A DNA stretch of 64,000 nt from Methanomassiliicoccales archaeon (lineage in GTDB: Archaea; Thermoplasmatota; Thermoplasmata; Methanomassiliicoccales; UBA472): positions 140,886-204,885 of the forward strand of contig DATJOX010000059.1 in assembly GCA_035506675.1 (NCBI GenBank), in the 5' to 3' direction. The position numbers and the translations under genes are program-made. Shown here piece by piece: positions 1-15,426 of this stretch. The notes below the pieces were generated by a model, which saw nothing but the letters and a program-made list of their open reading frames with translations, had not been told where the DNA came from and made no database searches. Each line of letters begins with the position of its first letter. Within the stretch, counting starts at the first letter, position 1.

Positions 1-14
1 CACACCCGATCCTT

Positions 15-38: not shown

Positions 39-42
39 CTTC

Positions 43-85: not shown

Positions 86-94
86 TTCCCGTTC

Positions 95-487: not shown

Positions 488-710
488 AGCGGCTGTCGCA
501 CGAGGACGAGAACCCGTTCCCTGTTCGAGATGGAAATCGGTCCGATGGCAAAATCGCTCGGAAGAAGACGCGGATTGACCTCGATTGGATTGATTGAGTG
601 CGCGTGTAAGTATTCCTCTCCAACCATCTTGTCACACTAGGTCGACCCGTGAAATAGCGTAACGAACATCAACAAGCACGTTTAACCCAACGAAATGAGA
701 TTACTGGTCA

Positions 711-1580
711 ATGAGCGTCGGAATAGCTACGAAGAGAGCTAGGAGCGATGGTGTCGGCGAGCAATACTTCCACATAGATCATCGCCCGCATCGCAAGCTT
801 ACGCTCGGTCTGGGCGCGGTTGGGGTATCCCTAGGCATCCTCATATGGTGGGTCTTGTCTGCCCTGGTCAGAACGGCCTACTTGCCTTCACCGTATGCCG
901 TGGCGGTCACGCTCTACAATCTGTTCACAGGCTACGATCACATCAGCGGACTGACCATGTGGCAACTTATTTCGGACACCCTTTCGCATTATTTCCCAGC
1001 CTTCATCCTCGCATTCCTGCTGGCATTGCCCATCGGAATGCTCATCGGAATAAGCAGGGTCGCTGATAGCCTCTCAAGGCCGTTCGTGGAGGTCCTTCGT
1101 CCCATCGCCCCCATAGTCTTCGGGCCCTTGTTCTTGATCGTGCTTGGGCAGGGGCAAGGAGTCTTCATGATCGTGTTCTTGGGGGTGTTCATACCTCTCG
1201 TCTCGCAGATACAATTCGGGGTACAACACATCGACCCTTTGGTCCTTGACCTTGGGCAGACGATGGGTGCGCATGGGTGGACTCTGTTCCGCAAGGTCAT
1301 CATTCCGTCGATCGCGCCCAATATCCTTGCCGGCTTGAAGGTGGCTATAGGGATCGGCTGGATCTGCATCATCGAGGGCGAGCTAATACTGGGAACGCCG
1401 GGAATTGGTGCTTTTGTGCTATGGAACAGTCAACTGGGATTATATTCGCAGATGTTCGCTGGAATAGTCCTGATATCGGTAATAGGCATCCTCACCTATG
1501 CAGTCGGATGGACGGTTGAGCACATGGTCTCAAAGAAGCTTGGAATGATACTGGAGAGCGCGCCGGTCACGCACTGCTAG
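711..1580 (+). CDS. ABC transporter permease, NitT/TauT (SsuC/TauC-like) family
   Basis: 289 aa with multiple hydrophobic helices and a binding-protein-dependent permease signature region (ALPIGMLIGISRVADSLSRPFVEVLRPIAPI). No ATPase or substrate-binding partner lies in the window. Confidence 0.75.
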   Translation: MSVGIATKRARSDGVGEQYFHIDHRPHRKLTLGLGAVGVSLGILIWWVLSALVRTAYLPSPYAVAVTLYNLFTGYDHISGLTMWQLISDTLSHYFPAFILAFLLALPIGMLIGISRVADSLSRPFVEVLRPIAPIVFGPLFLIVLGQGQGVFMIVFLGVFIPLVSQIQFGVQHIDPLVLDLGQTMGAHGWTLFRKVIIPSIAPNILAGLKVAIGIGWICIIEGELILGTPGIGAFVLWNSQLGLYSQMFAGIVLISVIGILTYAVGWTVEHMVSKKLGMILESAPVTHC

Positions 1581-1871
1581 TCTAGCATTCCCATAGGCAC
1601 TGCTCGTTCGGGCAACTACTCGCCCCCGTATACAAGCTTCCAAGAGATTCGGTTCTTGGCCATCCGGGCTAAGCTTTGCTACGGTTTGCCAGGAAGCACT
1701 TACCGATTCCATGGAGCACCTCGTGGTTGTTTGCAACAGACGATAGGCTGATCAGGGTCCCCACCCTTTGGTGCGCCGCGTGCTGTGCTTCATTGTAATG
1801 AATAGAACAGCACGATCCGGAAGTCCCTCCCTAATGATTATTAGCCTGATCGTGCCCATTAACTGGTTGAG

Positions 1872-4037
1872 ATGGCCACCCTGCAAGGCACTGCGACTAA
1901 TAATGTGCGACGCTCGCGGAAATCTCGTGGCCTCAGAGCAACTGGCATAGAAGTTATAGGCGATGTGCCTTGGGGAACGCACTTCTGCCAATTCTACCAG
2001 GATAGCCAAGATCTGGTTGAGATCCTAGTGCCCTATTTCAAAGCTGGACTTGACGCGAATGAGTTCTGCATGTGGGTGACGTCTGAGCCACTCAGAGTTG
2101 AAAAGGCCACGGAGGCTTTGAAGAGGGCTGTCCCCAACCTCGAGGTAGCCCTCGACAAGGGCCAGATCGAGATCCTTGATTACAAGGATTGGTACATGAA
2201 AGGTGGCAAGTTCGAGTCTTCACGGGTCCTCGATGGATGGGTGACGAAGCTCGAGGAATCGAGAAAGAAAGGATTCGAAGGTCTGCGCCTGACCGGAAAC
2301 ACACATTGGCTCGAGGAAACCCAATGGAATGATTTCGAGCAGTACGAAGCCAGCGTCAATAGCGTCATCGGCAAGCATCGCATGATCGCACTGTGCACGT
2401 ACTCAATCGAGCGCTGCGGGGCGAACGAGATTCTGGACGTCGTTGCCAACCATCAATTCGCGCTCGTGAGACGTCACGGTGATTGGAGCCTGATCGAGGG
2501 TTCGCACGATGCACGTACCCGAGAAGCGCTTAAAGAAAGCGAAGAATTGTACAGGCACATCCTTCAGTACGCTCCCACCGCCATTTACGAGATTGACTAT
2601 GCTGGCCCCAGGTTCAAGAGCGTCAACGAAGCGATGTGCCTGCTCACTGGTTACACCCGCGAGGAATTGCTGGCAAAGAATCCAAACGAACTCCTCGACG
2701 CACAAAGCAGACACAGATTCCAGGAAAGGATAAGAAGAGGGATGGCTGGAGAGAACCTAGCGGGCGGCGTTGAATACAAAGCAATGAAGAAGGATGGGAG
2801 CGAGCTCTGGGTCATTCTAAACGTTAAACCGACATACAAGGATGGCAAGCTAGACGGAGCACTCGTTGTTGGAAACGACATCACAGAAAGGAAGCGAGCA
2901 GAATCGGCAATAAGAGAAAGCGAGGCTAAGTTCAGATCGCTGTTCGAGTACTCGTCTGAAGGAATGGCTCTCCACGAATTAGTCAATGACGAGCATGGCG
3001 AGCCAATCGATTACCGAATTCTTGATGTCAATTCTGTGTTTACGACGATCACGAGAATCTCCAGAGGCGAAGCCGTCGGCAAGCTTGCATCCGAACTCTA
3101 TGGAACTGGCAAACCACCCTATCTGGATATCTACGCAGAAGTGGCAAGGACCGGGAAGGCTGCTTGCTTTGAGACATACTTCCAGCCCATGGACAAGCAT
3201 TTCATCATTTCCGCATTCTCGCCCATGAATGGCAGATTCGCTACTGCGTTCCTGGATGTCAGTCGCCAGAAGAAGCTGGAAGGAGAACTTGAAAGAAGAC
3301 TGAGGGACCTTGCTCGATCGAATGATGAACTGCAGCAGTTCGCGTACGTCGCTTCTCATGATCTGCAGGAACCCCTCCGAATGGTGCTGGCATATCTTGC
3401 CTTGCTCGATAGCAAGTATAGAGACCAGCTAGGCTCCAAGGCCAAGGAGTACGTCGACTTCGCCATGGAGGGTGGCAATCGAATGCGAAGGCTGATCGAC
3501 GACCTCTTGGAGTACTCAAGGGTGGACACAAGAGGAAAGCCGTTCAGCCGAGTCGATATGAACTCGGTTGCCGCAAAGACTCTGGAAGTACTGAAAGTGC
3601 CATTGGAGGAGACCAGAGCGGATATTGTCATAAACCATCTCCCGGATGTCCTCGCGGACGAGTCCCAGATGATCCAGGTGATGCAGAATCTGATTGGCAA
3701 CGCGATCAAATTCCACGGAGCGGAAGTGCCGCAGATCCACATCTCGGCTTCCAAGGCCGCCAATGAATGGGTCTTCGCCGTCAAAGACAATGGCATCGGA
3801 TTGAACATGGAGCACGCTGACAAGATATTCCTAATGTTCCAGCGTCTGCATGCCCACGATGAGTATCCCGGCACAGGCGTCGGCTTGGCCGTTACGAAGA
3901 AGATTATCGAGCGACATGGCGGGCGAATCTGGGTTGAAAGCGAAGAGGGGAAAGGGGCTACGTTCTACTTCTCTATTCCACTCAGAGAAAAAAGCAGTTC
4001 AACAGTAGGGAACCACGTCGTTCAAACACACCAATAA
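1872..4037 (+). CDS. Sensor histidine kinase: MEDS domain, two PAS domains, HisKA and HATPase_c
   Basis: 721 aa. N-terminal MEDS-like motif (WGTHFCQFYQDSQDLVEILVPYFKAGLDANEFCMWVTSEP). PAS segments. H-box FAYVASHDLQEPLR. N/G boxes (NLIGNAIKF, DNGIGL, GTGVGLA). Confidence 0.85.
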   Translation: MATLQGTATNNVRRSRKSRGLRATGIEVIGDVPWGTHFCQFYQDSQDLVEILVPYFKAGLDANEFCMWVTSEPLRVEKATEALKRAVPNLEVALDKGQIEILDYKDWYMKGGKFESSRVLDGWVTKLEESRKKGFEGLRLTGNTHWLEETQWNDFEQYEASVNSVIGKHRMIALCTYSIERCGANEILDVVANHQFALVRRHGDWSLIEGSHDARTREALKESEELYRHILQYAPTAIYEIDYAGPRFKSVNEAMCLLTGYTREELLAKNPNELLDAQSRHRFQERIRRGMAGENLAGGVEYKAMKKDGSELWVILNVKPTYKDGKLDGALVVGNDITERKRAESAIRESEAKFRSLFEYSSEGMALHELVNDEHGEPIDYRILDVNSVFTTITRISRGEAVGKLASELYGTGKPPYLDIYAEVARTGKAACFETYFQPMDKHFIISAFSPMNGRFATAFLDVSRQKKLEGELERRLRDLARSNDELQQFAYVASHDLQEPLRMVLAYLALLDSKYRDQLGSKAKEYVDFAMEGGNRMRRLIDDLLEYSRVDTRGKPFSRVDMNSVAAKTLEVLKVPLEETRADIVINHLPDVLADESQMIQVMQNLIGNAIKFHGAEVPQIHISASKAANEWVFAVKDNGIGLNMEHADKIFLMFQRLHAHDEYPGTGVGLAVTKKIIERHGGRIWVESEEGKGATFYFSIPLREKSSSTVGNHVVQTHQ

Positions 4038-4300
4038 AATCCAATCATGTATATTAAAGAAAGCGACTCCCCACTGGCCCCAATCGTAAGCATTAAATAT
4101 GGGACATTTCGCGGAATTGTATACTACCCCTGCACTCTCGTGAATCCGCCGATTTCGCAACCGCGGGCATCGAGTTCCGGGATTGGCGGCTAACGAAGGC
4201 CGTTTTCCTTGGTGATCCTTGTGGGTGCGACGTGCGACCTCGACCATTCAAATACCGGCACTTCAATTGATTTCTGGTCGAGTGAGGAAGAGACAATCTC

Positions 4301-5161
4301 ATGGGAATCCTAGACGAGTCGTACCGCCTGGAAAACGGCGTCAGAGTGCCGAAGATCGGGCTGGGAACGTGGCATATGCCCGATGGAAGAACCACCTACG
4401 ACGCAGTTTCCTTTGCCTTGGCAAATGGATACAGACACATTGACACCGCTCATGGCTACGGCAACGAAGCGAGCGTTGGCAGCGCTGTCCGTGACTGTGG
4501 AATCGAGAGAAAGGAGATCTTCGTCACCTCCAAGCTCCCAGCCGACGTCAAGAACTACGAGGGTGCGCTGAAGAGCTTCGAAGGCACCATGGAGAGGCTA
4601 GGTCTCGAGTACCTGGACCTATACCTCATCCACGCGCCGTGGCCATGGAACAAGGCTGGTCTCGATTTCAGAGCGGAGAACAGCAGGGTATGGAAAGCGC
4701 TTGAGATGATCTACAAGAGCGGCCGGTGCCGTGCGATCGGGGTCTCGAATTTCGATATTTCCGACCTCACCTCCCTCATCCAGGACTGCGAGATCGAACC
4801 AATGGCGAACCAGATCAAGTTCCACGTTGGCAACACGCAGGAAAGTCTCACGCGGTACTGCCAACAGAACCGCATGCTGGTGGAGGGCTACTCACCTCTG
4901 GCCACCGGGGCAATCCTCGGCGATGATGCCATTGCCGCCGTAGCCGAGAAGTATGATTCGACCGTCGCCAAGATTTGCATACGCTATGTTCTTCAAAGAG
5001 GGGTGCTCCCGCTTCCCAAATCCGTACATCCAGAATACATTCTACAGAACGCCGATGTTGATTTCGAGATCAGAGCAGACGACATGGCCCTCCTCGACAA
5101 CATGAAGAACACCGCGAGAGAAGGTCGGGTAAGAAAGGGCCTTCGTATGATCCTACAGTGA
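4301..5161 (+). CDS. Aldo/keto reductase (2,5-diketo-D-gluconate reductase-like)
   Basis: 286 aa. AKR motifs GLGTW, GYRHIDTAHGYGNE, LDLYLIHAPWP, IGVSNF. Confidence 0.9.
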   Translation: MGILDESYRLENGVRVPKIGLGTWHMPDGRTTYDAVSFALANGYRHIDTAHGYGNEASVGSAVRDCGIERKEIFVTSKLPADVKNYEGALKSFEGTMERLGLEYLDLYLIHAPWPWNKAGLDFRAENSRVWKALEMIYKSGRCRAIGVSNFDISDLTSLIQDCEIEPMANQIKFHVGNTQESLTRYCQQNRMLVEGYSPLATGAILGDDAIAAVAEKYDSTVAKICIRYVLQRGVLPLPKSVHPEYILQNADVDFEIRADDMALLDNMKNTAREGRVRKGLRMILQ

Positions 5162-5198
5162 GGGGTCGAGGTTGAGAGCAAGTGGTTGCCGCGTCGAT

Positions 5199-5561
5199 TC
5201 ATTCACGAGGGCGCTTCTCGCAGACGATCGCCACGGCAGCAGCCATGGTGTCTGAATGAGTTAGGCTGATCTTGATTTCAAAAGCCCTCACTCTCTTATC
5301 CAGGATTGCGACGAATGGTATTCCGCGTCTCCGGTTCAGTATCTCAATCTTGTTCAGGGGGACCCTGATCCCGTAGCATTGGAGCGCCTTCACGACCGCC
5401 TCTTTCCCAGCAAATCGCGCCGCGTAGTGTTGCGTTGGATGCAATTTGCTCTCGCAGTACCTTATCTCCTTCTCGGTGAAGACCTTCTTCAGAATGCTGC
5501 TTTTCGAAAGGATATCATGACTGAACCTGGATAGCTCAACACTGTCGATTCCGATCTCCAG
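5199..5561 (-). CDS. acpS: Holo-(acyl carrier protein) synthase, AcpS-type 4'-phosphopantetheinyl transferase (start uncertain)
   Basis: The track ORF (5199-5444, TTG start) carries the AcpS C-terminal half (ARFAGKEAVVKAL...SLTHSD). The same frame stays open upstream to 5599 and encodes the conserved N-terminal GxD motif (LEIGIDSVELSRF...VFTEKEIRYC). No ATG, GTG or TTG lies upstream of 5444 in that frame. 5561 is a CTG and gives a typical ~120-aa AcpS. Confidence 0.65.
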   Translation of the reverse strand: MEIGIDSVELSRFSHDILSKSSILKKVFTEKEIRYCESKLHPTQHYAARFAGKEAVVKALQCYGIRVPLNKIEILNRRRGIPFVAILDKRVRAFEIKISLTHSDTMAAAVAIVCEKRPRE

Positions 5562-5602
5562 ACCACCACTCTCACTCTGATTGAATTGAAATCGCTGCTT
5601 CT

Positions 5603-6649
5603 CTATATATCCATGTCACCTGCGAAGAAACGCCAATTCGCCTCATCCAGTAGATAGGATTGATCTGCAAGACCGTCAGGATACAAGACAACTCTCGTCT
5701 TGTCGTTAACATTCACGAAATTGAACCTCCTGAGCTTCTTTGGAATGTCACTATTGCCCATGTAGCGAATCGCAATCGCACCTGTGCCTTCTTCTCTTTG
5801 ATGCCGAATGAAATTGGCCAGGAGAGAGTCGAACAAGTCATCAGATGGTAAGAACAACATGTCGTCAACGTAGCAGACGTTGTCTTTCACTCGATAGACC
5901 AGGTAACCGCCGATCTCGTCCTTGTCATCTAGGACGCAGAATATTCTATAGTAGACATACGATCGCGAATATCTCCAGTTCAAGAATCTGGAGGTTCGCT
6001 CTCCAGCAATCCCGAATTGCTTCGATGTCCTCTCCCACAGCACGTCAAATCTCTCGTCGAAAGACCCTGGCATATCAAGCGAGTGACTGAACCGACTGCT
6101 TATGCGCTTCTCTCTTGAAAACACGTCACTGCATGAATCCACCACTCTCAGGACTCCTTTTGACCTGAGATACTTGGGAATAAGATGCGATGGCACACGC
6201 GCCAGGTTCAAGGGTTTCACGAATACCCTGGCCCTGCCCACCTCCTTGTATCCTATGCGAAAGAAAACCGGACTTGATTCCTCGTTTGGTGTTTCGTATA
6301 GCAGGTAGCTTCCAGAAGCGCCCGTATCTGACACTATCGCCCTCATCAGCTTGACGGCTGGCCCAAATCCTCTGTGGCCTCGGTCGATGGAGAAATCACC
6401 GATGACCCCTGCGAGCACCGACCTGTCGCCGATCTTCAATCTCCGTGGAAAGAGTGATGCCGAACCGACTAGAGGCCCCGATGGCCCATACTTCGCAAGC
6501 CAGCATGATGCGTTCCCATAAGGACCATGTTTGTAACTCCAGTCGTAGCGTTGAGAGGAGTACGCAACACTGAGGTTCCTGTGCACCAGTGAGAGGATGG
6601 CCTCTTTGTCGCCTTCTATGTCCCCCTTGATCACGGTGTAATTATTCAT
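5603..6649 (-). CDS. Two-lobed GNAT-type acyltransferase (FemAB/CelD-like)
   Basis: 348 aa. The N-terminal lobe has a GNAT-like core (VIGDFSIDRGHRGFGPAVKLMRAIV). The C-terminal lobe has FLNWRY...GGYLVY, typical of the Acetyltransf_6/FemAB-related family. Its start overlaps the upstream gene by 4 nt. Confidence 0.6.
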   Translation of the reverse strand: MNNYTVIKGDIEGDKEAILSLVHRNLSVAYSSQRYDWSYKHGPYGNASCWLAKYGPSGPLVGSASLFPRRLKIGDRSVLAGVIGDFSIDRGHRGFGPAVKLMRAIVSDTGASGSYLLYETPNEESSPVFFRIGYKEVGRARVFVKPLNLARVPSHLIPKYLRSKGVLRVVDSCSDVFSREKRISSRFSHSLDMPGSFDERFDVLWERTSKQFGIAGERTSRFLNWRYSRSYVYYRIFCVLDDKDEIGGYLVYRVKDNVCYVDDMLFLPSDDLFDSLLANFIRHQREEGTGAIAIRYMGNSDIPKKLRRFNFVNVNDKTRVVLYPDGLADQSYLLDEANWRFFAGDMDI

Positions 6650-7641
6650 TCAATCCCGAGTTTTCTCTGGACCAAAGCGATGGTCTCAGGATCCTCAATC
6701 TCTTCGATGCGTTCTAGCGCAGATTTCCTATCCAGACAACCCTCGCGGACCAGGTTCGCGAGTTCCAAGGAGTAGGGGTGAAAATGAAACTGATCCTTGT
6801 GGACTATGTTCGCGTATGAGTTCAGGAGGCAATTGGTGGAGTTGGCATCTGTGTCGCGTGGTGCTTCCCATCCATACCCGCGAATCGTTTCGTATATCTT
6901 CTCTTCGTCGTAGCCCAAGAACGCAAGCGGGTTGATGGTATAGGGGAACAGCTCAGGGCTATTGAATTGCTCTTCGTCAAGGAAGTAAGGGTTTATCGCG
7001 TCACCAGCAATCCTGTGAAGCGGATCGTATACCGATTTCTGCATCATCCTTGTCATTTGGGGGTTGTTCTTCATGATTGACGAGGTGATTGGAGCCTGAC
7101 CCGGAGACCAGCCATATGTGACAAATGGGATCCTCTTTTCAATCGCCAAGCGGAGCGCATGGTACTTGATCATCCCCATGCAAGACGTGCAGATCGCGCT
7201 CGCTCGCTCGATGGTTATTGGTGGGAATGGATTGGCTTTGGCGCATTCGGAGAAGATCGTCTTCAGAACGTCAAATCGTGGTTTCACGAAAATATGGTCG
7301 ATTCCCAGATTCTCGACGACGGTCCTGATGTTGCGAAAGGTCTGTTCGGGGACGAAACCGTTGTCGAATGTGATCGCGAGTATGTTCAGTTTATATTCGT
7401 TCTTCAAGATAATACTGGTGTAAGTGCTGTCTTTGCCTCCGCTGTAGCTCATGAGTGCATCGTAGTCGCCGAGTCCCCTGTGTTTGTCAACCAAATCGGC
7501 GAATTTGCGCCTGTATTCGGACATCCTGTCTTCTAGGTGGTCAATGCCCCTGAACTCGAGGCAGTAGTTGCAGACGCCTTCCTTGTTGAATCGTATTCCT
7601 GGAAAGGTCTCAGGCAGTATGCATCTTGTGCATCGATTCAT
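6646..7641 (-). CDS. PP-loop ATP pyrophosphatase, N-acetyl-sugar amidotransferase-like (WbuX/PseA/AglX type)
   Basis: 331 aa. N-terminal Cys pairs (CTRCILPETFPGIRFNKEGVCNYC) are followed by the PP-loop SYSGGKDSTY. This is the hallmark layout of acetamidino-sugar amidotransferases. Confidence 0.7.
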   Translation of the reverse strand: MNRCTRCILPETFPGIRFNKEGVCNYCLEFRGIDHLEDRMSEYRRKFADLVDKHRGLGDYDALMSYSGGKDSTYTSIILKNEYKLNILAITFDNGFVPEQTFRNIRTVVENLGIDHIFVKPRFDVLKTIFSECAKANPFPPITIERASAICTSCMGMIKYHALRLAIEKRIPFVTYGWSPGQAPITSSIMKNNPQMTRMMQKSVYDPLHRIAGDAINPYFLDEEQFNSPELFPYTINPLAFLGYDEEKIYETIRGYGWEAPRDTDANSTNCLLNSYANIVHKDQFHFHPYSLELANLVREGCLDRKSALERIEEIEDPETIALVQRKLGIE

Positions 7642-7651
7642 AGGTCCATCT

Positions 7652-8620
7652 TCAGGCTTCTAGGAGATTGGGGGGTGACTCCCTTAAATGCTTTGTAGAA
7701 TTGTGTTTATTGGCGATCTCTCTGAATGCCCTAGCGACCTGCTGCTCTTCCAGGTCCAGCGCTTCGCAAACCTCTGGAATCCCGATCTTATTCTCCCAAG
7801 CGTACAACAGGAGATCCAGAACATCGTACGGCATTCGGAAGTAGAACTCCTCGTCGCTCACTTCGTAGCTGAACGTGTCTGGACTGGGGACCCTATCGAG
7901 TATCTCTTTCATCACTCCCAAGCGCCTTGAGATTTGGTAGACTTGTGTCTTGTACAGGTGCGCGATCGGTTCGATGTCAACCCCCCCATCCCCGTACTTG
8001 ACGAAGAATCCCTGCATCTGCTCACTTCTGTTGGTAGTGCCGCAAACGAGATAATTATTCATCTCTGCATAATAATAAAGTTGCATCATTCTCGTCCTCT
8101 GCTTGGTGTCGGTGGCGGCAACGATGCCATTTAACGTGGCCTTGTTCAGCCGGCAGGAGCTTACTTCGCCATTGCGGCGCATTATGTTCAGGGTAAAGAA
8201 ATTGTATGCGTCCCTCGCAAGGAGATTTCCGGGCAGGGTGATCTTGATCCTGCTATCAGGCTCATAGTCCGGAACCATCTTCCTTATTATGGCATCTCTC
8301 TTCTCGTAAGTTCCGAAGCCTTCAAGCACTGGCGTAATGTCGATTTCCAAGATCTTGATGCCGAGCCTTCGAGCGTGTTTCTTCGCATATTGAGCACTGA
8401 TGGGGTTCGATTCCTTTTCTGGGAGGATGAGACCAAGCACCGATTCTTTGCCCAGTGCCTCCACGCAAAGCGAGGAGGACAGTGCCGAGTCGATGCCTCC
8501 GCTCAATCCCACAACGACTCCTTCCCGCTTCATGGAAGTCGTTTGCTGTTTGATGAACGAACAGATCCGCTCGATCTCCCTATCGCAATCCAGATCCAAT
8601 GCCTCTCTTCTGAATTTCAT
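7652..8620 (-). CDS. NAD+ synthetase (NadE)-family PP-loop amidotransferase-like protein
   Basis: 322 aa. PP-loop GLSGGIDSA and NadE-type motifs (TTNRSEQMQGFFVKYGDGGVDIEPIAHLYKTQV). Carries an internal insertion relative to a minimal NadE. Confidence 0.7.
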   Translation of the reverse strand: MKFRREALDLDCDREIERICSFIKQQTTSMKREGVVVGLSGGIDSALSSSLCVEALGKESVLGLILPEKESNPISAQYAKKHARRLGIKILEIDITPVLEGFGTYEKRDAIIRKMVPDYEPDSRIKITLPGNLLARDAYNFFTLNIMRRNGEVSSCRLNKATLNGIVAATDTKQRTRMMQLYYYAEMNNYLVCGTTNRSEQMQGFFVKYGDGGVDIEPIAHLYKTQVYQISRRLGVMKEILDRVPSPDTFSYEVSDEEFYFRMPYDVLDLLLYAWENKIGIPEVCEALDLEEQQVARAFREIANKHNSTKHLRESPPNLLEA

Positions 8621-8641
8621 ATCGGCAACCTCGTACCTTGG

Positions 8642-10186
8642 TCATTCATTTCCTTCGTGCTCTTGGGAAACGCCAACGGCGATCTTTCCAGTCGGCGTTC
8701 TGGGCAATTGCTCTCGTATCTCTACATGCTTTGGAACCATGCATCGTTCCAGTTTCCTAGTGCAGAGACGCATGATCTCTTCTTTAGTCAGCTTCGATCC
8801 CTTTCTAAGAGCGACAACTGCCTTGACCGCCTGTCCCAGGACATCATCTGGAATCCCCAGGACTCCTGCTTCGACGACGTCATCGATCTCGTAAAGAGCA
8901 TCCTCCACTTCCTTGGGGCTCACGATCCCCCCGGCCGTCTTTATCATATTGTCCTTGCGCGCAACGAAGTAGAGGTAGGCGTCTTCGTCCATCTTGAACA
9001 GATCTCCCGTGAACAGGTTCGTTTCGCCGGGATACAGTCCGATTCTCAGTTTCTTGGCGCTCTCCTCTGGTAGATTCCAATATCCCTTCATGACATTGGA
9101 TCCTCTGACCACGAGCTCGCCGACCTCGCCGGCCTTGGTGATCATCTCCCCTCGCTCATTCACGAGGTATGTCTCGACGTTCGGCATCGCTTTCCCGACC
9201 GAAGATGGCCTCCTGGAGAGTTCCTCTGGAGGCAGATACGACACCCTCTTGCATTCGGTCAGACCGTACATCGAGAATATCTTCACGTTTGGGAGAGCCT
9301 TCTGAAGCTGAACTATGTACTTCACTGGGAAGACCTGGGCCGTGCTTGTGATATACCGCAGCCTCGAGAAATCGTACTCTGCCAGATTCTTGTTTTTCAG
9401 AAGAATGGCGGCAATGGGTGGCACTATGGGAAAGCCCGTTACCTCTTCCCTGATGATAGACTCGATGATATGATACGGATAGAGGAATGATTTCTCTAGG
9501 ACCACTGTCCCGCCGAATTTGAAAGCCATCAGGACTTGGTACAGACCATAGTCGAACGACAGTGGCAGACAATCCATAATGATGTCCTTGTCAGTGTTCT
9601 CTAGATACTCAATGATCGAGTTCGCTGCTGAGACCACGTTCAAATGAGTCAGCATTACCCCTTTTGGAGTGCCGGTCGAACCCGAAGTGTAAATGAGAAT
9701 GGCCAGATCGATATCGATAGAACGGTTCGGTGGAGGCGTGTTTGGGTATTTCATTGCCTCTTTGTAGCCGCAAAGCAGCATACCGTCATCTTCGTGCTCA
9801 TCGACTGATATCGCTCCTCTCAGGTGAGGATGGCCTTCAGCATTTCCAGAGATTTCCGCGAGGTGCTTCGAATCTGTGATCAGAATCTTGACCTGACAGT
9901 CGTTCAATATGTATCCCAGTTTCTTTGATTTCACCTGTGGATTGACTATGACGAATATGCCCGATGCTTTCAGAATCCCGAATACGGAAACGACTGATTC
10001 AATCGAATTCTCCAGGTAGATGGCGACTCGATCCTGCCTCTGTATGCCGTTTGCGATTAGGGCATTGGCAAGCGAGTTGGCTGCGTTGTCCACCTGGGCA
10101 TATGTTAACCTTTTCTTGTGAGCAATTAGGGCTACCTTGTCGGGGTGTTCTCTCGCGCTGTTCTCTAGGAACTCACCTACCAACAT
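8642..10186 (-). CDS. ANL-superfamily adenylating enzyme (AMP-dependent synthetase/ligase, DltA- or acyl-CoA-ligase-like)
   Basis: 514 aa. Motifs A3 YTSGSTGTPKGV, A5-like, A8 GDLFKMDEDAYLYFVARKDNMIKTAG, A10 PRTPTGKI. Confidence 0.9.
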   Translation of the reverse strand: MLVGEFLENSAREHPDKVALIAHKKRLTYAQVDNAANSLANALIANGIQRQDRVAIYLENSIESVVSVFGILKASGIFVIVNPQVKSKKLGYILNDCQVKILITDSKHLAEISGNAEGHPHLRGAISVDEHEDDGMLLCGYKEAMKYPNTPPPNRSIDIDLAILIYTSGSTGTPKGVMLTHLNVVSAANSIIEYLENTDKDIIMDCLPLSFDYGLYQVLMAFKFGGTVVLEKSFLYPYHIIESIIREEVTGFPIVPPIAAILLKNKNLAEYDFSRLRYITSTAQVFPVKYIVQLQKALPNVKIFSMYGLTECKRVSYLPPEELSRRPSSVGKAMPNVETYLVNERGEMITKAGEVGELVVRGSNVMKGYWNLPEESAKKLRIGLYPGETNLFTGDLFKMDEDAYLYFVARKDNMIKTAGGIVSPKEVEDALYEIDDVVEAGVLGIPDDVLGQAVKAVVALRKGSKLTKEEIMRLCTRKLERCMVPKHVEIREQLPRTPTGKIAVGVSQEHEGNE

Positions 10187-10457
10187 GTCGTAGCTTCCTT
10201 GATATGAACTTCTCCAACTTGTCCAGGGAATCCAGATTATCGGGAATCAGGTCTTCGTCTTCGACTTTGATATGATAGGTTTCTTCGATGAACCCGACAA
10301 GCTCCAGGACTCCAGTCGAATCGATCAACCCTCTCTCGAGGAAGGAATCGTGGGCGTCTAAGGCGATGTTTTTATTTCCGGACATAAATCTATCTCTTAT
10401 GAAGGCTTTCAGCTCCTTTTCAATATCGGCAGGGGACACCTTTCTTGTCTTGCTCAT
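10173..10457 (-). CDS. Acyl/peptidyl carrier protein
   Basis: About 94 aa from the ATG at 10457; the track ORF starts at an upstream TTG at 10469. Phosphopantetheine attachment motif GLIDSTGVLELVGFIE. The 3' end overlaps the adenylase start by 14 nt. Confidence 0.8.
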   Translation of the reverse strand: MSKTRKVSPADIEKELKAFIRDRFMSGNKNIALDAHDSFLERGLIDSTGVLELVGFIEETYHIKVEDEDLIPDNLDSLDKLEKFISRKLRHVGR

Positions 10458-10729
10458 GTGCAAATCCAACCTTTGCCTATGGAACCGAAGACTACGCTAG
10501 TCATGATTTATGGCACTAGATAAGACTTTGTTGACGACTTGGCATGGATGGCAAACAGGAGACACAAGGAAGCTTCCACCAGACCCACCTAAGACGCGCA
10601 CAAGACAAGACTGGTCCTCTCCCACGTAAGCAGATGGGCGCAAACTGGGCGTCAACAAGTGATCTGCTTAGAGAAACATGAACGTCAACTCGCAAAGACC
10701 TTCTACCGATAAGGCGTTCACAGGCTGAG

Positions 10730-10945
10730 TTGGCTCGGACGAGTGGTCCCGTGAAGTGCTACAAGTGCGAGTGGGAAGGGAGGGAAGAGGACCTGGTCGA
10801 AAAGCCCGGGGACCTCATGTTCTACGACTACGTCGCTGCCAACACTTTGATGATTGATGTAACCCGCACCAACTACCTGTGCCCGAAATGCGGAACGATG
10901 CTGAAGAGCCATCGCGTGGTGGGCGGGATGGTGCTAGATCAGTAG
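10730..10945 (+). CDS. Small zinc-ribbon protein (hypothetical)
   Basis: 71-aa ORF from a TTG start, or 64 aa from an internal GTG. Two CxxC pairs (CYKC...CPKC). It ends 47 nt before the URO-D-family gene. Confidence 0.4.
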   Translation: MARTSGPVKCYKCEWEGREEDLVEKPGDLMFYDYVAANTLMIDVTRTNYLCPKCGTMLKSHRVVGGMVLDQ

Positions 10946-10992
10946 CTGCGAATGGATTCGCCGCGAAGATAGGATATACAGAAGGTTTGAGA

Positions 10993-12117
10993 ATGACCGA
11001 AGGAATCGAAGCCATACTACCTCCACCGAATCAAAAATGGCATGAACACGCAGAGCAGAGATTCGCGAGCCCGTTCATGGGTTCGAAGTTCGATCGGATT
11101 GACGTCGATGCGATGATGCTCTCCCATGCGGCGGTGATTTCCGGATTTACCATAAACGACTTCTACACTAAACCAGACCTCGGCGCGGCTTGCGTCGCAA
11201 ACGCGTCCGAGATGTACGATCTGATTCCGATGACCCATTGGTATTTCTCCCTCCCGTGGGTCGCGGAGATGGGCGCGGAGGTGCAATTCCGACGGCTTCT
11301 TCCGCCCGTTGTCAAGGAGCCCTCTATCACGGACCTTGAGGGGGTAGACCGGCTCGAAGTCCCCGACCTCAAAGAAATGGAGAATGGCTTCACCGGCAAA
11401 CTGATGATCACTGCACAGGACTACATCCAGCAGAAGACGCCGAAGAAGTTCGTCCCCATGACCTATACCTCCGATCTGACGGGCGGCGGGGCGCAGCTCT
11501 GCGGAATCGAGAACTTCATCATATGGTCCTTGACCGAGCGCGAATCGGCCAAGAAGCTGGTGTCCAAGTACACCGAGGTGGCGGTCAACGGCGCGGAGCT
11601 TATCGCGAATCGCTATGGGATGGCGATGATCTCGACCGGTTCGGTTCTCGCCAACAACGACATCTTCTCCGATTCGGACGTCCACGAACTGTCGATCAAG
11701 TTCCTGCACGGCTTCGTAACGAAAGCCTTGGAGAAGGGCGCCGGACCACAGGTCCTCTATCACCTGTGCGGCAATCACGAGACCGACTACAAGCTGTTCA
11801 AGGATGAGCTGATCTTCACCCCCTTCACCATATTCCACGTGGGCTATATGGGACGGAACGTGTTCCCCTCAGACCTCTTGGCCAAGGAGTTCGGGGATGT
11901 GGCCACGATCATGGGATCGGTCGACACGAAGATGATGATCCTGCCAAACCCCTTGAGGATCTACGAGCAAGCCAAGCAGCAGCTGATCGGGGGGAGGGAC
12001 AGCAAGAACGGGTACATCCTCGGCACGGCCTGCGAACTGCCCCCGGATGCCCTTCCTGCGAACGTGTTCGCTCTGGTCCAGGCGGCCAGGGACTACGGGA
12101 CCTATGGAAGTTGGTGA
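10993..12117 (+). CDS. Uroporphyrinogen-decarboxylase-fold methyltransferase (MtaA/CmuA family)
   Basis: 374 aa from the ATG at 10993; the track ORF extends to 10879 through a low-complexity Arg/Gly region. URO-D family pattern with a putative Zn triad (YHLCGNHE ... GTACELP). Confidence 0.75.
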   Translation: MTEGIEAILPPPNQKWHEHAEQRFASPFMGSKFDRIDVDAMMLSHAAVISGFTINDFYTKPDLGAACVANASEMYDLIPMTHWYFSLPWVAEMGAEVQFRRLLPPVVKEPSITDLEGVDRLEVPDLKEMENGFTGKLMITAQDYIQQKTPKKFVPMTYTSDLTGGGAQLCGIENFIIWSLTERESAKKLVSKYTEVAVNGAELIANRYGMAMISTGSVLANNDIFSDSDVHELSIKFLHGFVTKALEKGAGPQVLYHLCGNHETDYKLFKDELIFTPFTIFHVGYMGRNVFPSDLLAKEFGDVATIMGSVDTKMMILPNPLRIYEQAKQQLIGGRDSKNGYILGTACELPPDALPANVFALVQAARDYGTYGSW

Positions 12118-12125
12118 AGGACCCG

Positions 12126-12473
12126 TCAATCGCCGCGGAGGTCGAGACCGACCGCCTGCCCGAAGTAGTAGGACAGGACCTTGAGGTCGATCTCGTCTAC
12201 GCTGCTCATCCTTAGGTTCTTTGACCTCTTGCCCACTCCTTCCAAGAGACCGAATCGATCATCGAATTCCGCCCCACGCGAGAATGCCAGGGTGATCCCC
12301 TTCTTCGTAGGGCTGATGACCGCCACGATGTGCTTCTTCCTGAACGCGAGAATGCCGTAGCTGATCTCTTCAGAAAGCGCAGGGAAATCGGTTCGCACGA
12401 ACCGCCTTATCGCAGCGACGATCGGCCGGTATTGAGGCAGCACCTTCTTCTCGACGAACTCCTCGACGTTCAT
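12126..12473 (-). CDS. DUF1801 (YdhG-like) domain protein
   Basis: 115 aa from the ATG at 12473. The pattern FVEKKVLPQYRPIVAAIRRFV...ISYGILAFRKK...ITLAFSRG is typical of the family. Confidence 0.6.
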   Translation of the reverse strand: MNVEEFVEKKVLPQYRPIVAAIRRFVRTDFPALSEEISYGILAFRKKHIVAVISPTKKGITLAFSRGAEFDDRFGLLEGVGKRSKNLRMSSVDEIDLKVLSYYFGQAVGLDLRGD

Positions 12474-12540
12474 CGTTCGCAATGATGGCGATTCCAGACG
12501 AAAATCCCTGCGGGCCCGGGTCGAGGCTCACGAAATGGTT

Positions 12541-12547
12541 CTTAATA
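12541..12547 (+). promoter_or_regulatory. TATA-like box (CTTAATA) about 28 nt upstream of the ATG at 12572
   Basis: The spacing fits archaeal leaderless or short-leader promoters seen repeatedly in this window. Confidence 0.35.
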
Positions 12548-12571
12548 CCTGTTATCCGATTGGAAAGCAGA

Positions 12572-14548
12572 ATGGCAGACGACGATGGCACTAGCGCGAA
12601 CCCACCGCTTGAACACCCGGCCAAGGACACGAAGGGCTCGAACGCCGCATCGATTCGCAGACTGCGGTCCTTCCTCGTATCGAATTGGCGTCTGATAGCC
12701 GCCGCCTTGGTCCTTCTGGTCGCGCTCTTCTTGACCTCGCTGTACACGTTCCTCCTATTTCACAGCCTGATCGAGGTGGGAATAGCGGTGACGGGATTCT
12801 CGGTATTCCTGGTGGCCGCGACCTCAAGGCGCTATTTAGAGAACAACTACCTGCTGTTTGTCGGCCTCGCCTTTCTCCCCATCTCTTTCCTTGGCCTCGT
12901 CCACATGCTGGCATTCGATGGCATGGGAGTCTTCGGGAACAACACCGCCAATCTCGCGACGCAGCTGTGGCTCGCGACACGCTACCTGGGCGCGGCGGCC
13001 CTCCTGATCGCCCCCATGATCATCTATCGCAAGATGAATTGGACCGCGGTTACCGTTGGGTTCTGCTCGGCCGCGGCGCTGCTCATCGCGCTCATCTTCC
13101 TCGGATACTTCCCCACCGCCTACACGGACGCCACTGGACTTACGCCTTTCAAGATCTACAGCGAGTACGCAATCTCGATCGTGCTCGGCTTGTCCATGAT
13201 TGTCCTTTACACAAGAAGGAGCTGGTTCGAGAAGAGCGTGTTCCAGCTTGTGATAGGCGCGAGCGCCTTGCAGATCCTTGCTGAGCTCACCTTCACCGGC
13301 TACGTCAAGGTCAACGACCCGGTCAACATGCTCGGGCACCTTCTCATCCTGGCCTCGTTCGGGCTGCTCCTCATCGCCTTGGTGAGGACCGGGATCGAAA
13401 AACCCTATGCGCTCGTCTTCCGGTCCCTCAAGGCCAGTGAGACCGCTCTGCGCGAGGAAAGGGACTTCGCAAACAGCATCATTAACAACACCCAGGCTGT
13501 CGTCATGGTGGTAGATCGCGGCGGCACCATCCTTACAATGAACCCATTCGGCCAGCGATTGCTGGGGGCGAACGAGCGATCGATGCGCGGCTCGAACTGG
13601 ATATCGGCGATGATCCCGGTGGAGGAGGGCGAAGCGTGCCGCACGGTGTTCCAGAACGCGGCGAACGGTTCGGAAACGGTTCACTACTCGGGAAGGATGA
13701 TAACGCAGAGCAACCAGGAACGGTGGATGAGCTGGAGCATGGGGGCGCTCAAGAACGACGTGGATGAGGTTGCGGGCGTTCTCCTACTCGGCAACGACAT
13801 GACCGAGCTCCGCCGATTGGAGGGGGAATTAGTGTGCCGAGCGGAAGAGCTGTCCCGCTCCAACGATGACCTGCAGCGCTTCGCATACGTCGCATCGCAC
13901 GACCTTCGCGAGCCTCTACGAATGATCTCGGTGTATCTTGAGCTCCTCAACGCCAAGCACGGAGGGGAGCTGGACGCGGAGGCGAAGGAGTACATATCGA
14001 TAGCCACCGAGGGCGCCGGGCGAATGCGCGAGATGATCGATGGTCTCCTGAACCTATCCAGGGTGGACACGAGAGGCGCGCCCATGAACCCAGAGTCCCT
14101 AGAGACGAGCCTGCAGGCCGCATTGACGAACCTGGGACCCTCCATCGACGAGGCTAAGGCAAGAGTTGCACGCGACCCGATGCCAATCGCCCGGATTGAT
14201 CCTACCCAAATGACCCAGGTGTTCCAGAATCTGATCGGGAACGCGCTCAAGTTCAGACGCGACGTTCCTCCGTCAATTCAAATCTCCGCGAGGCAAACGG
14301 GAACGGAGTGGGTAATCTCGGTCGCGGACAACGGCATCGGGATTTCGAAGGAAAGCCAGCCCGGCATCTTCGATCTCTTCAATCGGGTGAATCCCGATTT
14401 GGACTACCCGGGCGCCGGGATCGGCCTGGCCACTTGCAAGAAGATCGTCGAGCGGCACGGGGGCAAGATCTGGGTGGAGTCCGAGGTTGGCAAGGGATCG
14501 ACATTCTTCTTCAGCCTGCCCGATCTAGCGACGACCGGTGCGGTCTGA
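12572..14548 (+). CDS. Membrane sensor histidine kinase: multi-TM sensor, PAS, HisKA and HATPase_c
   Basis: The ATG at 12572 (MADDDGTS...) is preferred over 12482. About 7-8 hydrophobic helices, then PAS. H-box FAYVASHDLREPLR. N/G boxes NLIGNALKF, DNGIGI, GAGIGLA. The kinase core is closely paralogous to the kinase at 1872-4037. Confidence 0.85.
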   Translation: MADDDGTSANPPLEHPAKDTKGSNAASIRRLRSFLVSNWRLIAAALVLLVALFLTSLYTFLLFHSLIEVGIAVTGFSVFLVAATSRRYLENNYLLFVGLAFLPISFLGLVHMLAFDGMGVFGNNTANLATQLWLATRYLGAAALLIAPMIIYRKMNWTAVTVGFCSAAALLIALIFLGYFPTAYTDATGLTPFKIYSEYAISIVLGLSMIVLYTRRSWFEKSVFQLVIGASALQILAELTFTGYVKVNDPVNMLGHLLILASFGLLLIALVRTGIEKPYALVFRSLKASETALREERDFANSIINNTQAVVMVVDRGGTILTMNPFGQRLLGANERSMRGSNWISAMIPVEEGEACRTVFQNAANGSETVHYSGRMITQSNQERWMSWSMGALKNDVDEVAGVLLLGNDMTELRRLEGELVCRAEELSRSNDDLQRFAYVASHDLREPLRMISVYLELLNAKHGGELDAEAKEYISIATEGAGRMREMIDGLLNLSRVDTRGAPMNPESLETSLQAALTNLGPSIDEAKARVARDPMPIARIDPTQMTQVFQNLIGNALKFRRDVPPSIQISARQTGTEWVISVADNGIGISKESQPGIFDLFNRVNPDLDYPGAGIGLATCKKIVERHGGKIWVESEVGKGSTFFFSLPDLATTGAV

Positions 14549-14609
14549 TGCGGCCTTTTGGTTCGGGCTATCAAGAAGGCATATCCACTGAGACCGCGCT
14601 TCTAGGAGC

Positions 14610-14999
14610 GTGCAGGCCGCAGAATTCCTCGATAGGACGAGCATCGAGTTCAGTGTGTCCAACGACAGGTACAGCATCACTGAGACGACCGACCCACCTG
14701 AGGCGCGGTCTGCTTTTGCAATCGTCAATAGAGCGGGCACGTTCACGGTGGTGAAGAAAGAAGAGCATCCTGGAGGTGGCTCGCACCGAATCATCACTTT
14801 CGAAGCGGACCTGCCAAACGACCTGACCGGGTTTCTGGCAATCGTCTCGGAAGCGCTGGCGGTTGCGCAAGTTCCCATCTTTGTTGTCTCTTCGTTCCGT
14901 ACCGACCACGTGCTGGTCAGGGAGGAAGACGTTCGCAGGGCGAGAAACGCACTCGCGTCGACCGGCTTCAAGGAGCGCAAAGAACCGAAGAACGATTGA
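14610..14999 (+). CDS. ACT-domain-containing protein (ACT_7-like)
   Basis: 129 aa. FTVVKKEE...ITFEADLPNDLTGFLAIVSEALAVAQVPIFVVSSFRTDHVLVREEDVRRARNAL matches the small ligand-binding ACT fold family. Confidence 0.6.
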   Translation: MQAAEFLDRTSIEFSVSNDRYSITETTDPPEARSAFAIVNRAGTFTVVKKEEHPGGGSHRIITFEADLPNDLTGFLAIVSEALAVAQVPIFVVSSFRTDHVLVREEDVRRARNALASTGFKERKEPKND

Positions 15000-15119
15000 T
15001 TTCGATGACGAGCATCCTGAATCCGCCTCCAGCTAGAGACTCGACCTGCTGGAGCGATGTCGTGTTCCGCAAAGGTTAAATACGGAAATTCTCCTGAACG
15101 CCATCAGGAGCACTGAATC

Positions 15120-15425: not shown

Positions 15426-15426
15426 A

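Follow-up and report, generated by a model that had tools for sequence, protein, structure and literature searches.

The window analysed here, a 64,000-nt stretch of contig DATJOX010000059.1 from a Methanomassiliicoccales archaeon (assembly GCA_035506675.1), contains a tight cassette of six minus-strand genes encoding a carrier protein, an adenylating enzyme of the ANL superfamily, two PP-loop enzymes, a double-GNAT acyltransferase and a phosphopantetheinyl transferase (PPTase) of the AcpS type. We propose that these genes form a module that would load an aspartate-like acid on its own carrier, amidate the tethered acid (perhaps thio-amidate it) and pass the product to a surface sugar. The proposal draws on the predicted substrate pocket of the adenylating enzyme, on the motifs and modelled folds of the tailoring and transfer enzymes, and on a gene order that recurs across phyla; we give it about an even chance of being correct.

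The cassette and its proteins

The genes are, in transcription order:

10173..10457, minus strand: carrier protein, 94 aa, with phosphopantetheine-attachment Ser47 in GLIDSTGVLELV
8642..10186, minus strand: ANL-superfamily adenylating enzyme (ANL), 514 aa; PF00501, PF13193, VinN-like substrate pocket
7652..8620, minus strand: NadE-family PP-loop enzyme, 322 aa; PF02540, NF002048, PP-loop S40GGIDS45
6646..7641, minus strand: PP-loop protein modelled with the fold of N-acetyl-sugar amidotransferases (NASATs), 331 aa, TIGR03573-like and hereafter T3573; tetracysteine, SGGKDS, extra Cys triad
5603..6649, minus strand: double-GNAT N-acyltransferase, 348 aa; PF13527, PF00583, AlphaFold2 model and Foldseek
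5199..5561, minus strand: AcpS-type 4'-phosphopantetheinyl transferase, about 120 aa; PF01648, apparent CTG start at 5561-5559

The first and second genes overlap by 14 nt and the fourth and fifth by 4 nt; gaps of 21, 10 and 41 nt separate the second from the third, the third from the fourth and the fifth from the sixth. The first-pass annotation, made from the letters of the window, had described this row of six co-oriented genes; the row is real, every junction was given exactly and all the motifs quoted are found in the proteins. Profile searches upheld five of its six family assignments, while the sixth, that of the GNAT protein to a FemAB-like type, had to be altered (see below). Compared with their counterparts in the closest relative, a Methanomassiliicoccales metagenome-assembled genome (L002), all six genes are under purifying selection, with dN/dS ratios between 0.05 and 0.09 (0.071 for the carrier, 0.081 for AcpS). 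None of the six proteins contains a transmembrane-like hydrophobic segment. A scan for bacterial promoters and terminators, uninformative for an archaeal host, returned no terminator-like site on the minus strand inside the cassette.

The carrier protein falls just short of the PF00550 gathering cut-off (19.8 bits against 20.8), and its matches to NCBIfam models for acyl carrier proteins (ACPs), the best being ACP_for_OlsHI (E 3e-11) and the AmcB ACP (E 2e-9), are far under the equivalog cut-offs. Ser47 is part of the sequence LIDSTGVLEL, and the motif IDS(T/M)G(V/F/T)LEL, serine included, is kept in 21 orthologs. AcpS matches PF01648 (E 1.6e-15, 57.5 bits, cut-off 25) and TIGR00556 (64 bits, cut-off 45), and scores 54 bits with the equivalog model TIGR00516, under the cut-off of 59.8. 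Its open reading frame (ORF) lacks all three codons ATG, GTG and TTG ahead of the catalytic GIDxxE motif and was left uncalled by the gene caller of the source contig. The CTG at 5561, however, falls where four homologs start with TTG or ATG, and the same CTG is found in L002 (position 11089 of that locus). Given the intact ORF, the low dN/dS ratio and a CTG at the homologous start common to both genomes, the gene appears to be maintained and is probably translated from CTG.

Archaea are generally without ACP and AcpS (PMC3533463), a rarity that the first-pass annotation had stated correctly. Among the loci compared, an acpS gene lies beside the ANL-carrier cassette in all archaeal copies and in no bacterial one; that the archaeal copies bring an AcpS of their own can be understood from the fact that their hosts normally lack such an enzyme. 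Modules with carrier, AcpS and ANL are also found in cultured Methanomicrobiales, whose AcpS homologs are 43-47% identical. In the complete genome of Methanofollis formosanus (CP037968.1, 1264127-1284522; L090), the AcpS, carrier and ANL genes adjoin a gene for a 355-aa protein distantly related to the GNAT family (hhalign probability 87%, E 4e-6) and a CE4 deacetylase gene, the genes of this group lying at 10001-12164 and 13682-15790 of that segment. The ANL enzyme encoded there is not of the VinN type and is 29% identical to that of the window; the module has no PP-loop enzymes and represents a simpler analogue. Taken with the window, it suggests that carrier-dependent N-acylation modules with their own PPTase recur in methanogens.

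The ANL enzyme matches PF00501 (E 1e-91) and PF13193 (E 4e-18) and contains the A3 motif YTSGSTGTPKG at residues 166-176 and the A10 lysine, K501, in PTGKI. Its top NCBIfam match, to TIGR03098, reaches 495 bits, under the cut-off of 592. When the central region was compared with the PDB, VinN (3WV4/3WVN) came first with 133 bits, the next entry having 102 and DltA 68; over the full length, the match to VinN amounts to 205 bits, at modest overall identity. In an alignment with 3WV4 that is ungapped across TECKR, residues D212, Y213, T282, K313 and R314 correspond to D230, F231, S299, K330 and R331 of VinN; two of the five are thus substituted (F231 to Y, S299 to T), and the shortened beta13-beta14 loop is equal in length. 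In the original VinN paper, K330 and R331 reportedly contact the alpha-carboxylate of the substrate. A review, in only partial agreement on that point, describes VinN as binding 3-methylaspartate or Asp as a beta-amino acid via D230, which holds the amino group, the bulky F231, S299 and K330/R331, and its beta13-beta14 loop as shortened by one residue relative to A domains for alpha-amino acids (PMC11253843). From the VinN-type pocket residues we infer that the substrate is an Asp-type acid tethered via its beta-carboxyl, with the alpha-carboxylate free. The D/K-R signature is present in the ANL enzyme of every locus that contains T3573.

Elsewhere in the family, a mostly Planctomycete set of loci (L029, L033, L035, L039, L044, L049-L051, L056, L058, L062, L064, L076 and L089) encodes ANL enzymes in which the aspartate is replaced, which suggests a different substrate, without an amino group; all of these loci are devoid of the T3573 PP-loop gene. 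An apparent link to linear gramicidin synthase (NRPS-Gly) was discarded, as the 300-bit match of the window ANL adds up two separate domain hits of 123 and 173 bits.

The NadE-like enzyme scores well against PF02540 (E 3e-58), NF002048 (400 bits, cut-off 313) and TIGR00552 (185 bits, cut-off 64), and its top PDB match is the NH3-dependent NAD synthetase 2e18. Its predicted role, from family membership and the PP-loop, is the ATP- and NH3-dependent amidation of a carboxylate. In at least 26 loci the gene lies between those for ANL and GNAT, an operon context that argues for a carboxylate other than nicotinic acid adenine dinucleotide.

T3573 aligns with TIGR03573 from residue 1 to 319 (model positions 1-320 of 344), with a score of 140.6 bits against a cut-off of 203.2; in public annotations it appears as TilS or QueC. 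The PP-loop S67GGKDS72 and a Zn tetracysteine, C4/C7/C24/C27 (C4-x-x-C7 and G-V-C24-N-Y-C27), are invariant in the alignment, and NASATs are characterized by a PP-loop SGGXDS and a tetracysteine CXXCXn[GN]XCXXC (PMC10607449). With the AlphaFold2 model (pLDDT 88) as query, the top Foldseek match is 8wex, a NASAT from Legionella (E 2e-15, TMq 0.70), the next families being TtuA, NcsA and LarE at 0.35-0.40. As modelled, then, the protein has the NASAT fold. The consecutive PDB codes 8weu, 8wev and 8wex were considered as a sign of a shared pathway and set aside; 8wex stems from a stand-alone study of the Legionella NASAT, and the adjacency appears coincidental.

T3573 differs from canonical NASATs in several respects. 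An extra triad, C151-x-x-C154...C271, is invariant in 22 sequences; it is missing in the canonical, HisH/HisF-linked NASAT of Azospirillum and present in all thiotemplate-linked homologs. HisH/HisF-like partners (WbuY/WbuZ, AglY/AglZ), whose genes accompany the canonical NASAT loci of Azospirillum and Massilia, occur neither in the cassette nor among its conserved neighbours. Among plasmid-borne full-length homologs, the Roseovarius copy is embedded in a nonribosomal peptide synthetase (NRPS); a Streptomyces homolog is fused to a condensation domain and follows AsnB and an adenylation-peptidyl carrier (A-PCP) protein, and a Bacillus thuringiensis homolog has an ACP gene on one side and two ANL genes on the other, in a cluster that also includes AsnB. 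Thus, the WbuX/PseA/AglX-type label given in the first pass is borne out by the fold and by both motifs and weakened by the sub-cut-off score and the Cys triad, while the function it implied, that of an acetamidino-sugar enzyme, is unlikely in view of the missing HisH/HisF partners, the triad, the NRPS-fused homologs and a strict co-occurrence with the carrier (see next section). The Roseovarius pelagicus plasmid (NZ_CP106737.1; L094) encodes, at 6415-14463 of the segment retrieved, a 2683-aa NRPS with the embedded NASAT-fold domain, and the same locus contains an oligosaccharide flippase and a CMP-nonulosonate-type cytidylyltransferase, an apparent link between thiotemplate and sugar chemistry.

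The Cys triad brings to mind CtaC, an Fe-S PP-loop enzyme of closthioamide biosynthesis whose thioamidation is confined to carrier-bound substrates; the Fe-S ligands are C154, C157 and C284, its PP-loop contains D77/S78, and N-terminal Zn ligands have been described (PMC6772006). The corresponding residues of T3573, D71/S72 and C151, C154 and C271, follow in the same order with near-identical spacing. By analogy with this CtaC/TtuA-like triad, the PP-loop step could consist of a sulfur insertion, which we put forward as a hypothesis. A Massilia plasmid match, tried as a bridge to CtaC, proved to be a fragmented canonical NASAT beside HisF-like genes.

The GNAT protein matches PF13527 and PF00583 weakly (Acetyltransf_9, _1 and _17 being the models hit) and has no NCBIfam match. 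Its AlphaFold2 model (pLDDT 88) resembles Eis-like proteins (2hv2, 2i00, 3n7z) and N-myristoyltransferases in Foldseek, with TM-scores of 0.57-0.65 and probability 1.0. No match to the FemAB models PF02388 and PF13480 was obtained at E 0.01 or better, and proteins that do match PF13480 are separate genes in some of the related loci. On its modelled fold, the protein is an Eis/N-myristoyltransferase-like double GNAT and not a member of the FemAB family, so that the FemAB likeness claimed for it holds only as far as the double-GNAT fold. The N-terminal lobe presents the pantetheine-pyrophosphate motif (R-x-x-G-x-A) as R93-G-F-G96-P-A98, with R93 invariant, and the C-terminal lobe the family motif FDERFDxLW. 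The former fits a donor that is either CoA or a holo-carrier.

Conserved synteny and origin of the cassette

Relatives of the GNAT are scarce: 38 were found among 5.8 billion proteins and 215 in a scan of one genome per species. The latter include a few from Thermoplasmatota and one from Methanoregulaceae, and all others come from bacteria, among them Nitrospirota, Planctomycetota, Ignavibacteria, Zixibacteria, Latescibacterota and Myxococcota. Synteny was examined by comparing the six proteins with 89 loci by tblastn, and co-occurrence was counted in the 57 loci whose sequence extends 5 kb or more upstream of the GNAT gene. Over 30 independent loci, from different phyla, repeat the gene order of the cassette. 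All archaeal loci, as well as those of Latescibacterota, Ignavibacteria and Zixibacteria, have the arrangement carrier-ANL-NadE-T3573-GNAT. Nitrospirota loci read AsnB-carrier-ANL-T3573-GNAT and lie beside exosortase XrtW or EpsH, EpsI and PEP-CTERM proteins, and those of Planctomycetota read AsnB-carrier-ANL-NadE-GNAT. The gene set is therefore not specific to archaea. The first-pass annotation had allowed that it might be a well-characterised O-antigen, capsule or exosortase-associated module of bacteria; it is indeed a widespread bacterial module linked to exopolysaccharide (EPS) and exosortase loci, but an uncharacterised one.

Counts in the 57 loci reveal a regular pattern. The GNAT occurs alone in 18 loci, with ANL, NadE and AsnB in 17, with ANL, NadE and T3573 in nine, and with ANL, T3573 and AsnB in six. 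Exactly two of the three enzymes NadE, T3573 and AsnB are thus present in 32 of the 37 ANL-containing loci, and the three are essentially never found with the GNAT unless ANL and carrier are there too. Every complete locus with T3573 also has NadE or AsnB. Viewed as a simple replacement for NadE, AsnB does not fit, since Planctomycete loci have both. Together with the NRPS fusions, this co-occurrence favours the carrier-bound group over a sugar as the object of tailoring, and suggests an order of events in which the amide is made first and is then activated by the NASAT-fold enzyme.

The most common conserved neighbour is a CE4 polysaccharide deacetylase gene, often directly after the GNAT gene; no obvious signal peptide was seen in the CE4 sequences examined. 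Other conserved neighbours encode XrtA-type GT4 glycosyltransferases, O-antigen-ligase-like proteins, chain-length determinants, flippases, exosortases XrtA or XrtW and FemAB-like PF13480 proteins. The loci with GNAT alone also have a polysaccharide context, next to CE4. Among the archaeal relatives, four loci (L004, L005, L011 and L092) have CE4, GT4, Alg13/14 or epimerase genes nearby, and GT2 and DUF1616 genes occur as well.

Some loci depart from these arrangements by additional genes. In the metagenomic variant L092, the NadE-like gene and the PP-loop gene are separated by one for a B12-binding radical SAM enzyme (6394-7953). One conceivable function of this enzyme is C-methylation of the tethered acid, as the native substrate of VinN is 3-methyl-Asp. 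Further genes of that locus encode a CE4-methyltransferase fusion, a GT4 and two DUF362 proteins, with acpS at the far end. In loci of the Nitrospirota type, a gene for exosortase W (NF038142, 579 bits) lies inside or beside the cassette (8401-9954 in L020, 828 in L024, 4621 in L046); in L020 it separates the PP-loop gene from the GNAT gene.

The window is archaeal by content, with genes for an archaeal topoisomerase I, RLI/ABCE1 and an arCOG PUA-domain protein; sensor kinases with MEDS and MASE3 domains and a URO-D-family methyltransferase are also encoded. The cassette stands out by composition. Its GC content is 50.2%, against 59.7% for the core genes over 11-64 kb, and its GC at third codon positions (GC3) is 57-65%, against 74-84% for core genes. 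In a neighbour-joining tree of ANL, T3573 and GNAT, the archaeal copies form one clade, sister to the Latescibacterota copy. Composition and the nesting of archaeal among bacterial copies are best explained by horizontal acquisition of a bacterial-type module. This agrees with what the first-pass annotation had read from a lower GC, except that the reduced-GC stretch spans 1-11 kb and is wider than the cassette alone. The genes in 1-5200, which encode a NikR-like protein, an ABC permease, a MEDS/PAS histidine kinase and an aldo/keto reductase, have intermediate values (GC 52-55%, GC3 62-73%), so that the compositionally atypical segment exceeds the cassette. Two features flank the six genes:

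4301..5161, plus strand: aldo/keto reductase (PF00248, E 1e-42), convergent with AcpS
10458..10878, no strand: intergenic region between the cassette and the divergent URO-D-family methyltransferase gene, presumably with the cassette promoter

An aldo/keto reductase homolog with 78% identity has a matching position and orientation in L002, whose other flank differs. The gene may be an accessory of the cassette in this sub-lineage, a weak link that comes from two genomes only. In a tblastn screen of the window that did pick up the aldo/keto reductase, queries for CE4, GT4, GT2, Alg14, DUF1616, FemAB and epimerase found no match, and AsnB only a weak and unrelated one. No gene for an exosortase or archaeosortase lies close to the cassette or belongs to the window genes that were inspected.

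Two further genes of the window were noticed. A 375-aa ORF at 59249-60376 (minus strand) forms a second pocket of low GC (GC 50%, GC3 59%) near a tRNA-Arg gene (60965-61040); it has no NCBIfam match and only a sub-threshold match to ATC_hydrolase. The ORF was considered as the trace of a mobile element and dropped, as no integrase or other mobile-element signature was found. The other gene, at 41536-43461, encodes a PRK13795-family protein of 641 aa in which a PUA-like region is joined to a PAPS-reductase-like PP-loop domain and, at the C-terminus, to a FrhG-like ferredoxin segment; it has no relation to the cassette.

A candidate pathway and its rivals

The pathway that we envisage begins with AcpS, which, judging from its family and distribution, would convert the apo-carrier into holo-carrier. 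The ANL enzyme, if its pocket residues are a guide, would adenylate an Asp-type amino-dicarboxylic acid at the beta-carboxyl and transfer it to the carrier as a thioester, with D212 holding the amino group of the substrate and K313/R314 its free alpha-carboxylate. The chemistry of its family and its strict co-occurrence with the carrier suggest that the NadE-like enzyme would adenylate this free carboxylate and, with NH3, turn it into a carboxamide. The NASAT-fold enzyme, in view of its motifs and of the NRPS fusions, might then activate an amide carbonyl of the tethered group, exchanging O for N to give an amidine or O for S to give a thioamide. Finally, as its fold, its motif A and its conserved neighbours suggest, the double GNAT would move the tailored acyl group from the pantetheine arm to an acceptor amine in an N-acylation. 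The acceptor would most likely be an amino sugar freed by a CE4 deacetylase, within a nucleotide- or lipid-linked glycan precursor.

The lack of transmembrane-like segments in the cassette proteins and of an obvious signal peptide in the CE4 sequences makes a cytoplasmic, NodB/NodA/NodF-like sequence of events plausible. In the N-glycans of methanogens, diamino-uronic acids are known to bear N-acyl groups other than acetyl, C-6 amides, acetamidino groups and amide-linked threonine; the glycan of Methanococcus has an acetamidino-mannuronic acid with an amide-linked Thr, as the first-pass annotation had stated correctly (PMC11407970). Given such groups, an acceptor of the diamino-uronic type is chemically reasonable. 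A Dlt-like route coupled to amidation and glycan decoration, as first suggested for these genes, thus fits the synteny and the polysaccharide loci of the relatives; what did not stand is the FemAB-like transferase, the acetamidino-sugar enzyme is unlikely, and neither a glycosyltransferase nor a deacetylase gene is nearby.

The pathway can be given a more specific form, in which a beta-linked aspartyl group has its alpha-carboxylate turned into an amide by the NadE-family enzyme and then into a thioamide by the NASAT-fold protein, acting as a CtaC-like [4Fe-4S] PP-loop enzyme, all on the carrier, before the double GNAT transfers it to the amine of a de-N-acetylated sugar. We regard this version as tentative and rather improbable. 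If it is true, NadE- and NASAT-family enzymes can work on thiotemplated substrates, an aspartyl thioamide decoration would be a modification not described before on any glycan, and thioamide chemistry would reach into surface glycans, both in archaea and in the many uncultured bacteria whose EPS loci are linked to exosortases. To our knowledge, thioamide chemistry in methanogens is known only from McrA.

Several observations weigh against the proposed pathway. Within reach of the cassette, neither the window nor L002 has a glycosyltransferase or CE4 deacetylase gene. The prediction of the ANL substrate hangs on five aligned residues, and in a Planctomycete subset the D is changed to G or S and the K to A, M, T or I, with the R kept, which means that specificity varies in the family. 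The NadE-like enzyme passes the NCBI cut-off for a NAD synthase subfamily and could in principle be a genuine NadE, and both PP-loop enzymes could act on the sugar instead of the carrier-bound group. The pattern of two out of three enzymes is not fully accounted for by a single free carboxylate. As to the sulfur option, the Cys triad could bind Zn, and the CtaC peptides compared, which are primer-derived sequences around its cysteines and not the full protein, are only loosely like the motifs of the window. Lastly, the tree of ANL, T3573 and GNAT is a neighbour-joining tree without bootstrap.

Four other explanations have to be set against this pathway. One retains the acylation from carrier to GNAT and lets both PP-loop enzymes act on the sugar, the NadE-like enzyme making a uronamide (C-6 amide) and the TIGR03573-like enzyme an acetamidino group, after the model of O-antigens and of the N-glycans of Methanococcus and Methanoculleus; this was the version of the first-pass annotation. 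The full-length TIGR03573 match, the NASAT fold with PP-loop and tetracysteine and the presence of exactly such modifications on methanogen glycans (PMC11407970) speak for it, and AsnB-type amidotransferases are typical of XrtA EPS loci. However, NadE, T3573 and AsnB are all absent from the 18 polysaccharide loci with GNAT alone, and the HisH/HisF-type partner that is missing, the TIGR03573 score under the cut-off, the extra Cys triad and the NRPS-fused homologs also count against it; we deem it unlikely. Slightly less probable in our judgement is that the cassette serves small-molecule synthesis or protein modification instead of a glycan, with products such as a compatible solute, a (thio)amide metabolite of thiotemplate chemistry or an N-acylated surface protein, and with the GNAT acting like Eis or an N-myristoyltransferase on a peptide or small amine. 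Such a role would agree with the nearest folds of the GNAT, with PP-loop relatives in clusters of the NRPS or polyketide synthase (PKS) type, with exosortase loci serving protein sorting, and with the window and L002 having an aldo/keto reductase gene in the place of glycan genes; yet most loci set the cassette among genes for GT4, CE4, flippase, Wzz/Wza and O-antigen-ligase-like proteins, and the lone GNAT, too, is found in polysaccharide loci beside CE4.

A lipid or N-acyl-amino-acid pathway, with ANL as a fatty-acyl-AMP ligase loading the ACP and the GNAT making an N-acyl amino acid or aminolipid, appears very unlikely. It could invoke the ornithine-lipid ACP as top NCBIfam match of the carrier, the matches of ANL to long-chain acyl-CoA ligase models, the N-myristoyltransferase-like fold of the GNAT and a published link between N-acyl amino acid synthases and PEP-CTERM/exosortase systems, a peripheral precedent cited in PMC11631085. 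But those profile scores are all far under the cut-offs, the D, K and R of the ANL pocket suit a polar amino-dicarboxylate, two ATP-dependent amidating enzymes would be left without a role, and the six proteins lack transmembrane-like segments. Hardly credible at all is a chance neighbourhood or decaying remnant, composed of a housekeeping NadE, a tRNA/queuosine PP-loop enzyme and an acpS pseudogene without a start. While NadE does pass its subfamily cut-off, the PP-loop protein is annotated as TilS/QueC, and AcpS has no canonical start and escaped the gene caller, the recurrence of the order in more than 30 loci across phyla, the dN/dS ratios of 0.05-0.09 in all six genes, acpS included, and the CTG at the homologous start in both genomes speak against it.

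Comparison with known systems

Every component of the cassette belongs to a known superfamily, and its logic has precedents in Dlt, in the Nod factor genes, in VinN/L/O, in CtaC and in the XrtA-associated ACP/ligase cassette. To the combination itself no product has been assigned; a curated family model is lacking for its GNAT, and literature searches returned no description of it. Thiotemplate chemistry is rare in archaea, and the PPTase, which accompanies only the archaeal copies, illustrates how a pathway that depends on an ACP can be transplanted into a host without ACP machinery. The module also occurs in EPS/exosortase loci of many uncultured phyla, among them Nitrospirota, Planctomycetota, Zixibacteria, Latescibacterota and Ignavibacteria, where solving its product would annotate surface chemistry. 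It makes concrete predictions for enzymology, namely an Asp-type-specific ANL, NadE-like and NASAT-like enzymes that act on carrier-bound substrates and, possibly, a sulfur-inserting step; the simpler related module of M. formosanus (AcpS, carrier, ANL, distant GNAT and CE4) offers a culturable entry point.

In the Dlt system (DltA/DltC/DltB/DltD), an ANL enzyme likewise charges a small dedicated carrier with a similar LxDSxGxxEL serine motif, and a surface polymer is decorated. DltA, however, is a weaker match to the ANL enzyme than VinN (68 versus 133 bits), neither an MBOAT DltB nor a DltD is found in the cassette or its conserved neighbourhood, transfer would fall to a cytoplasmic GNAT, and amidating enzymes are present. 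The XrtA-associated cassette, made up of an ACP, a TIGR03098 ligase and a TIGR03099 pyridoxal phosphate (PLP)-dependent decarboxylase with a TIGR03108 amidotransferase, is known as a set of comparative-genomics families without an assigned product. Its ligase family is the top NCBIfam match of the ANL enzyme, and the bacterial cassettes lie beside exosortases, EpsI, PEP-CTERM proteins and genes for XrtA-type GT4, chain-length determinants and amidotransferases. The scores nevertheless stay under the family cut-offs; instead of decarboxylase and hydrolase genes there are NadE-like, NASAT-like and double-GNAT genes, and neither an exosortase nor an archaeosortase is among the window genes inspected.

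In Nod factor synthesis, GlcNAc is de-N-acetylated by the CE4 deacetylase NodB and then re-N-acylated by the N-acyltransferase NodA, with NodF as dedicated ACP. By analogy, the CE4 deacetylase that is the commonest neighbour of the cassette GNAT family may play the part of NodB. The differences are that the double GNAT is not NodA, that the predicted acyl group is an amino-dicarboxylate derivative rather than a fatty acid, and that the window lacks a CE4 gene. With the NASATs (TIGR03573: WbuX, WbpG, PseA, AglX; 8WEX), T3573 shares the fold (TMq 0.70), SGGKDS and the tetracysteine; it is set apart by its sub-cut-off score, the want of HisH/HisF, the Cys triad, the co-occurrence with carrier and ANL and the NRPS-fused homologs. 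CtaC and T3573 are both PP-loop ATP-pyrophosphatase proteins encoded beside carrier proteins, but the nearest solved structure of T3573 is a NASAT and not TtuA, and its context is a glycan/EPS locus, not an antibiotic cluster.

The closest parallel to the loading step is offered by VinN and VinL (with VinO) of vicenistatin biosynthesis, where a stand-alone ANL enzyme likewise loads a stand-alone carrier. VinN and the cassette ANL have in common the D for the amino group, the K-R for the carboxylate, a bulky aromatic residue next to the D and the shortened beta13-beta14 loop. The two systems part after loading: the cassette has neither the PLP decarboxylase VinO nor a PKS, amidation and not loss is predicted for the free carboxylate, and the product would go to the GNAT instead of a polyketide synthase.

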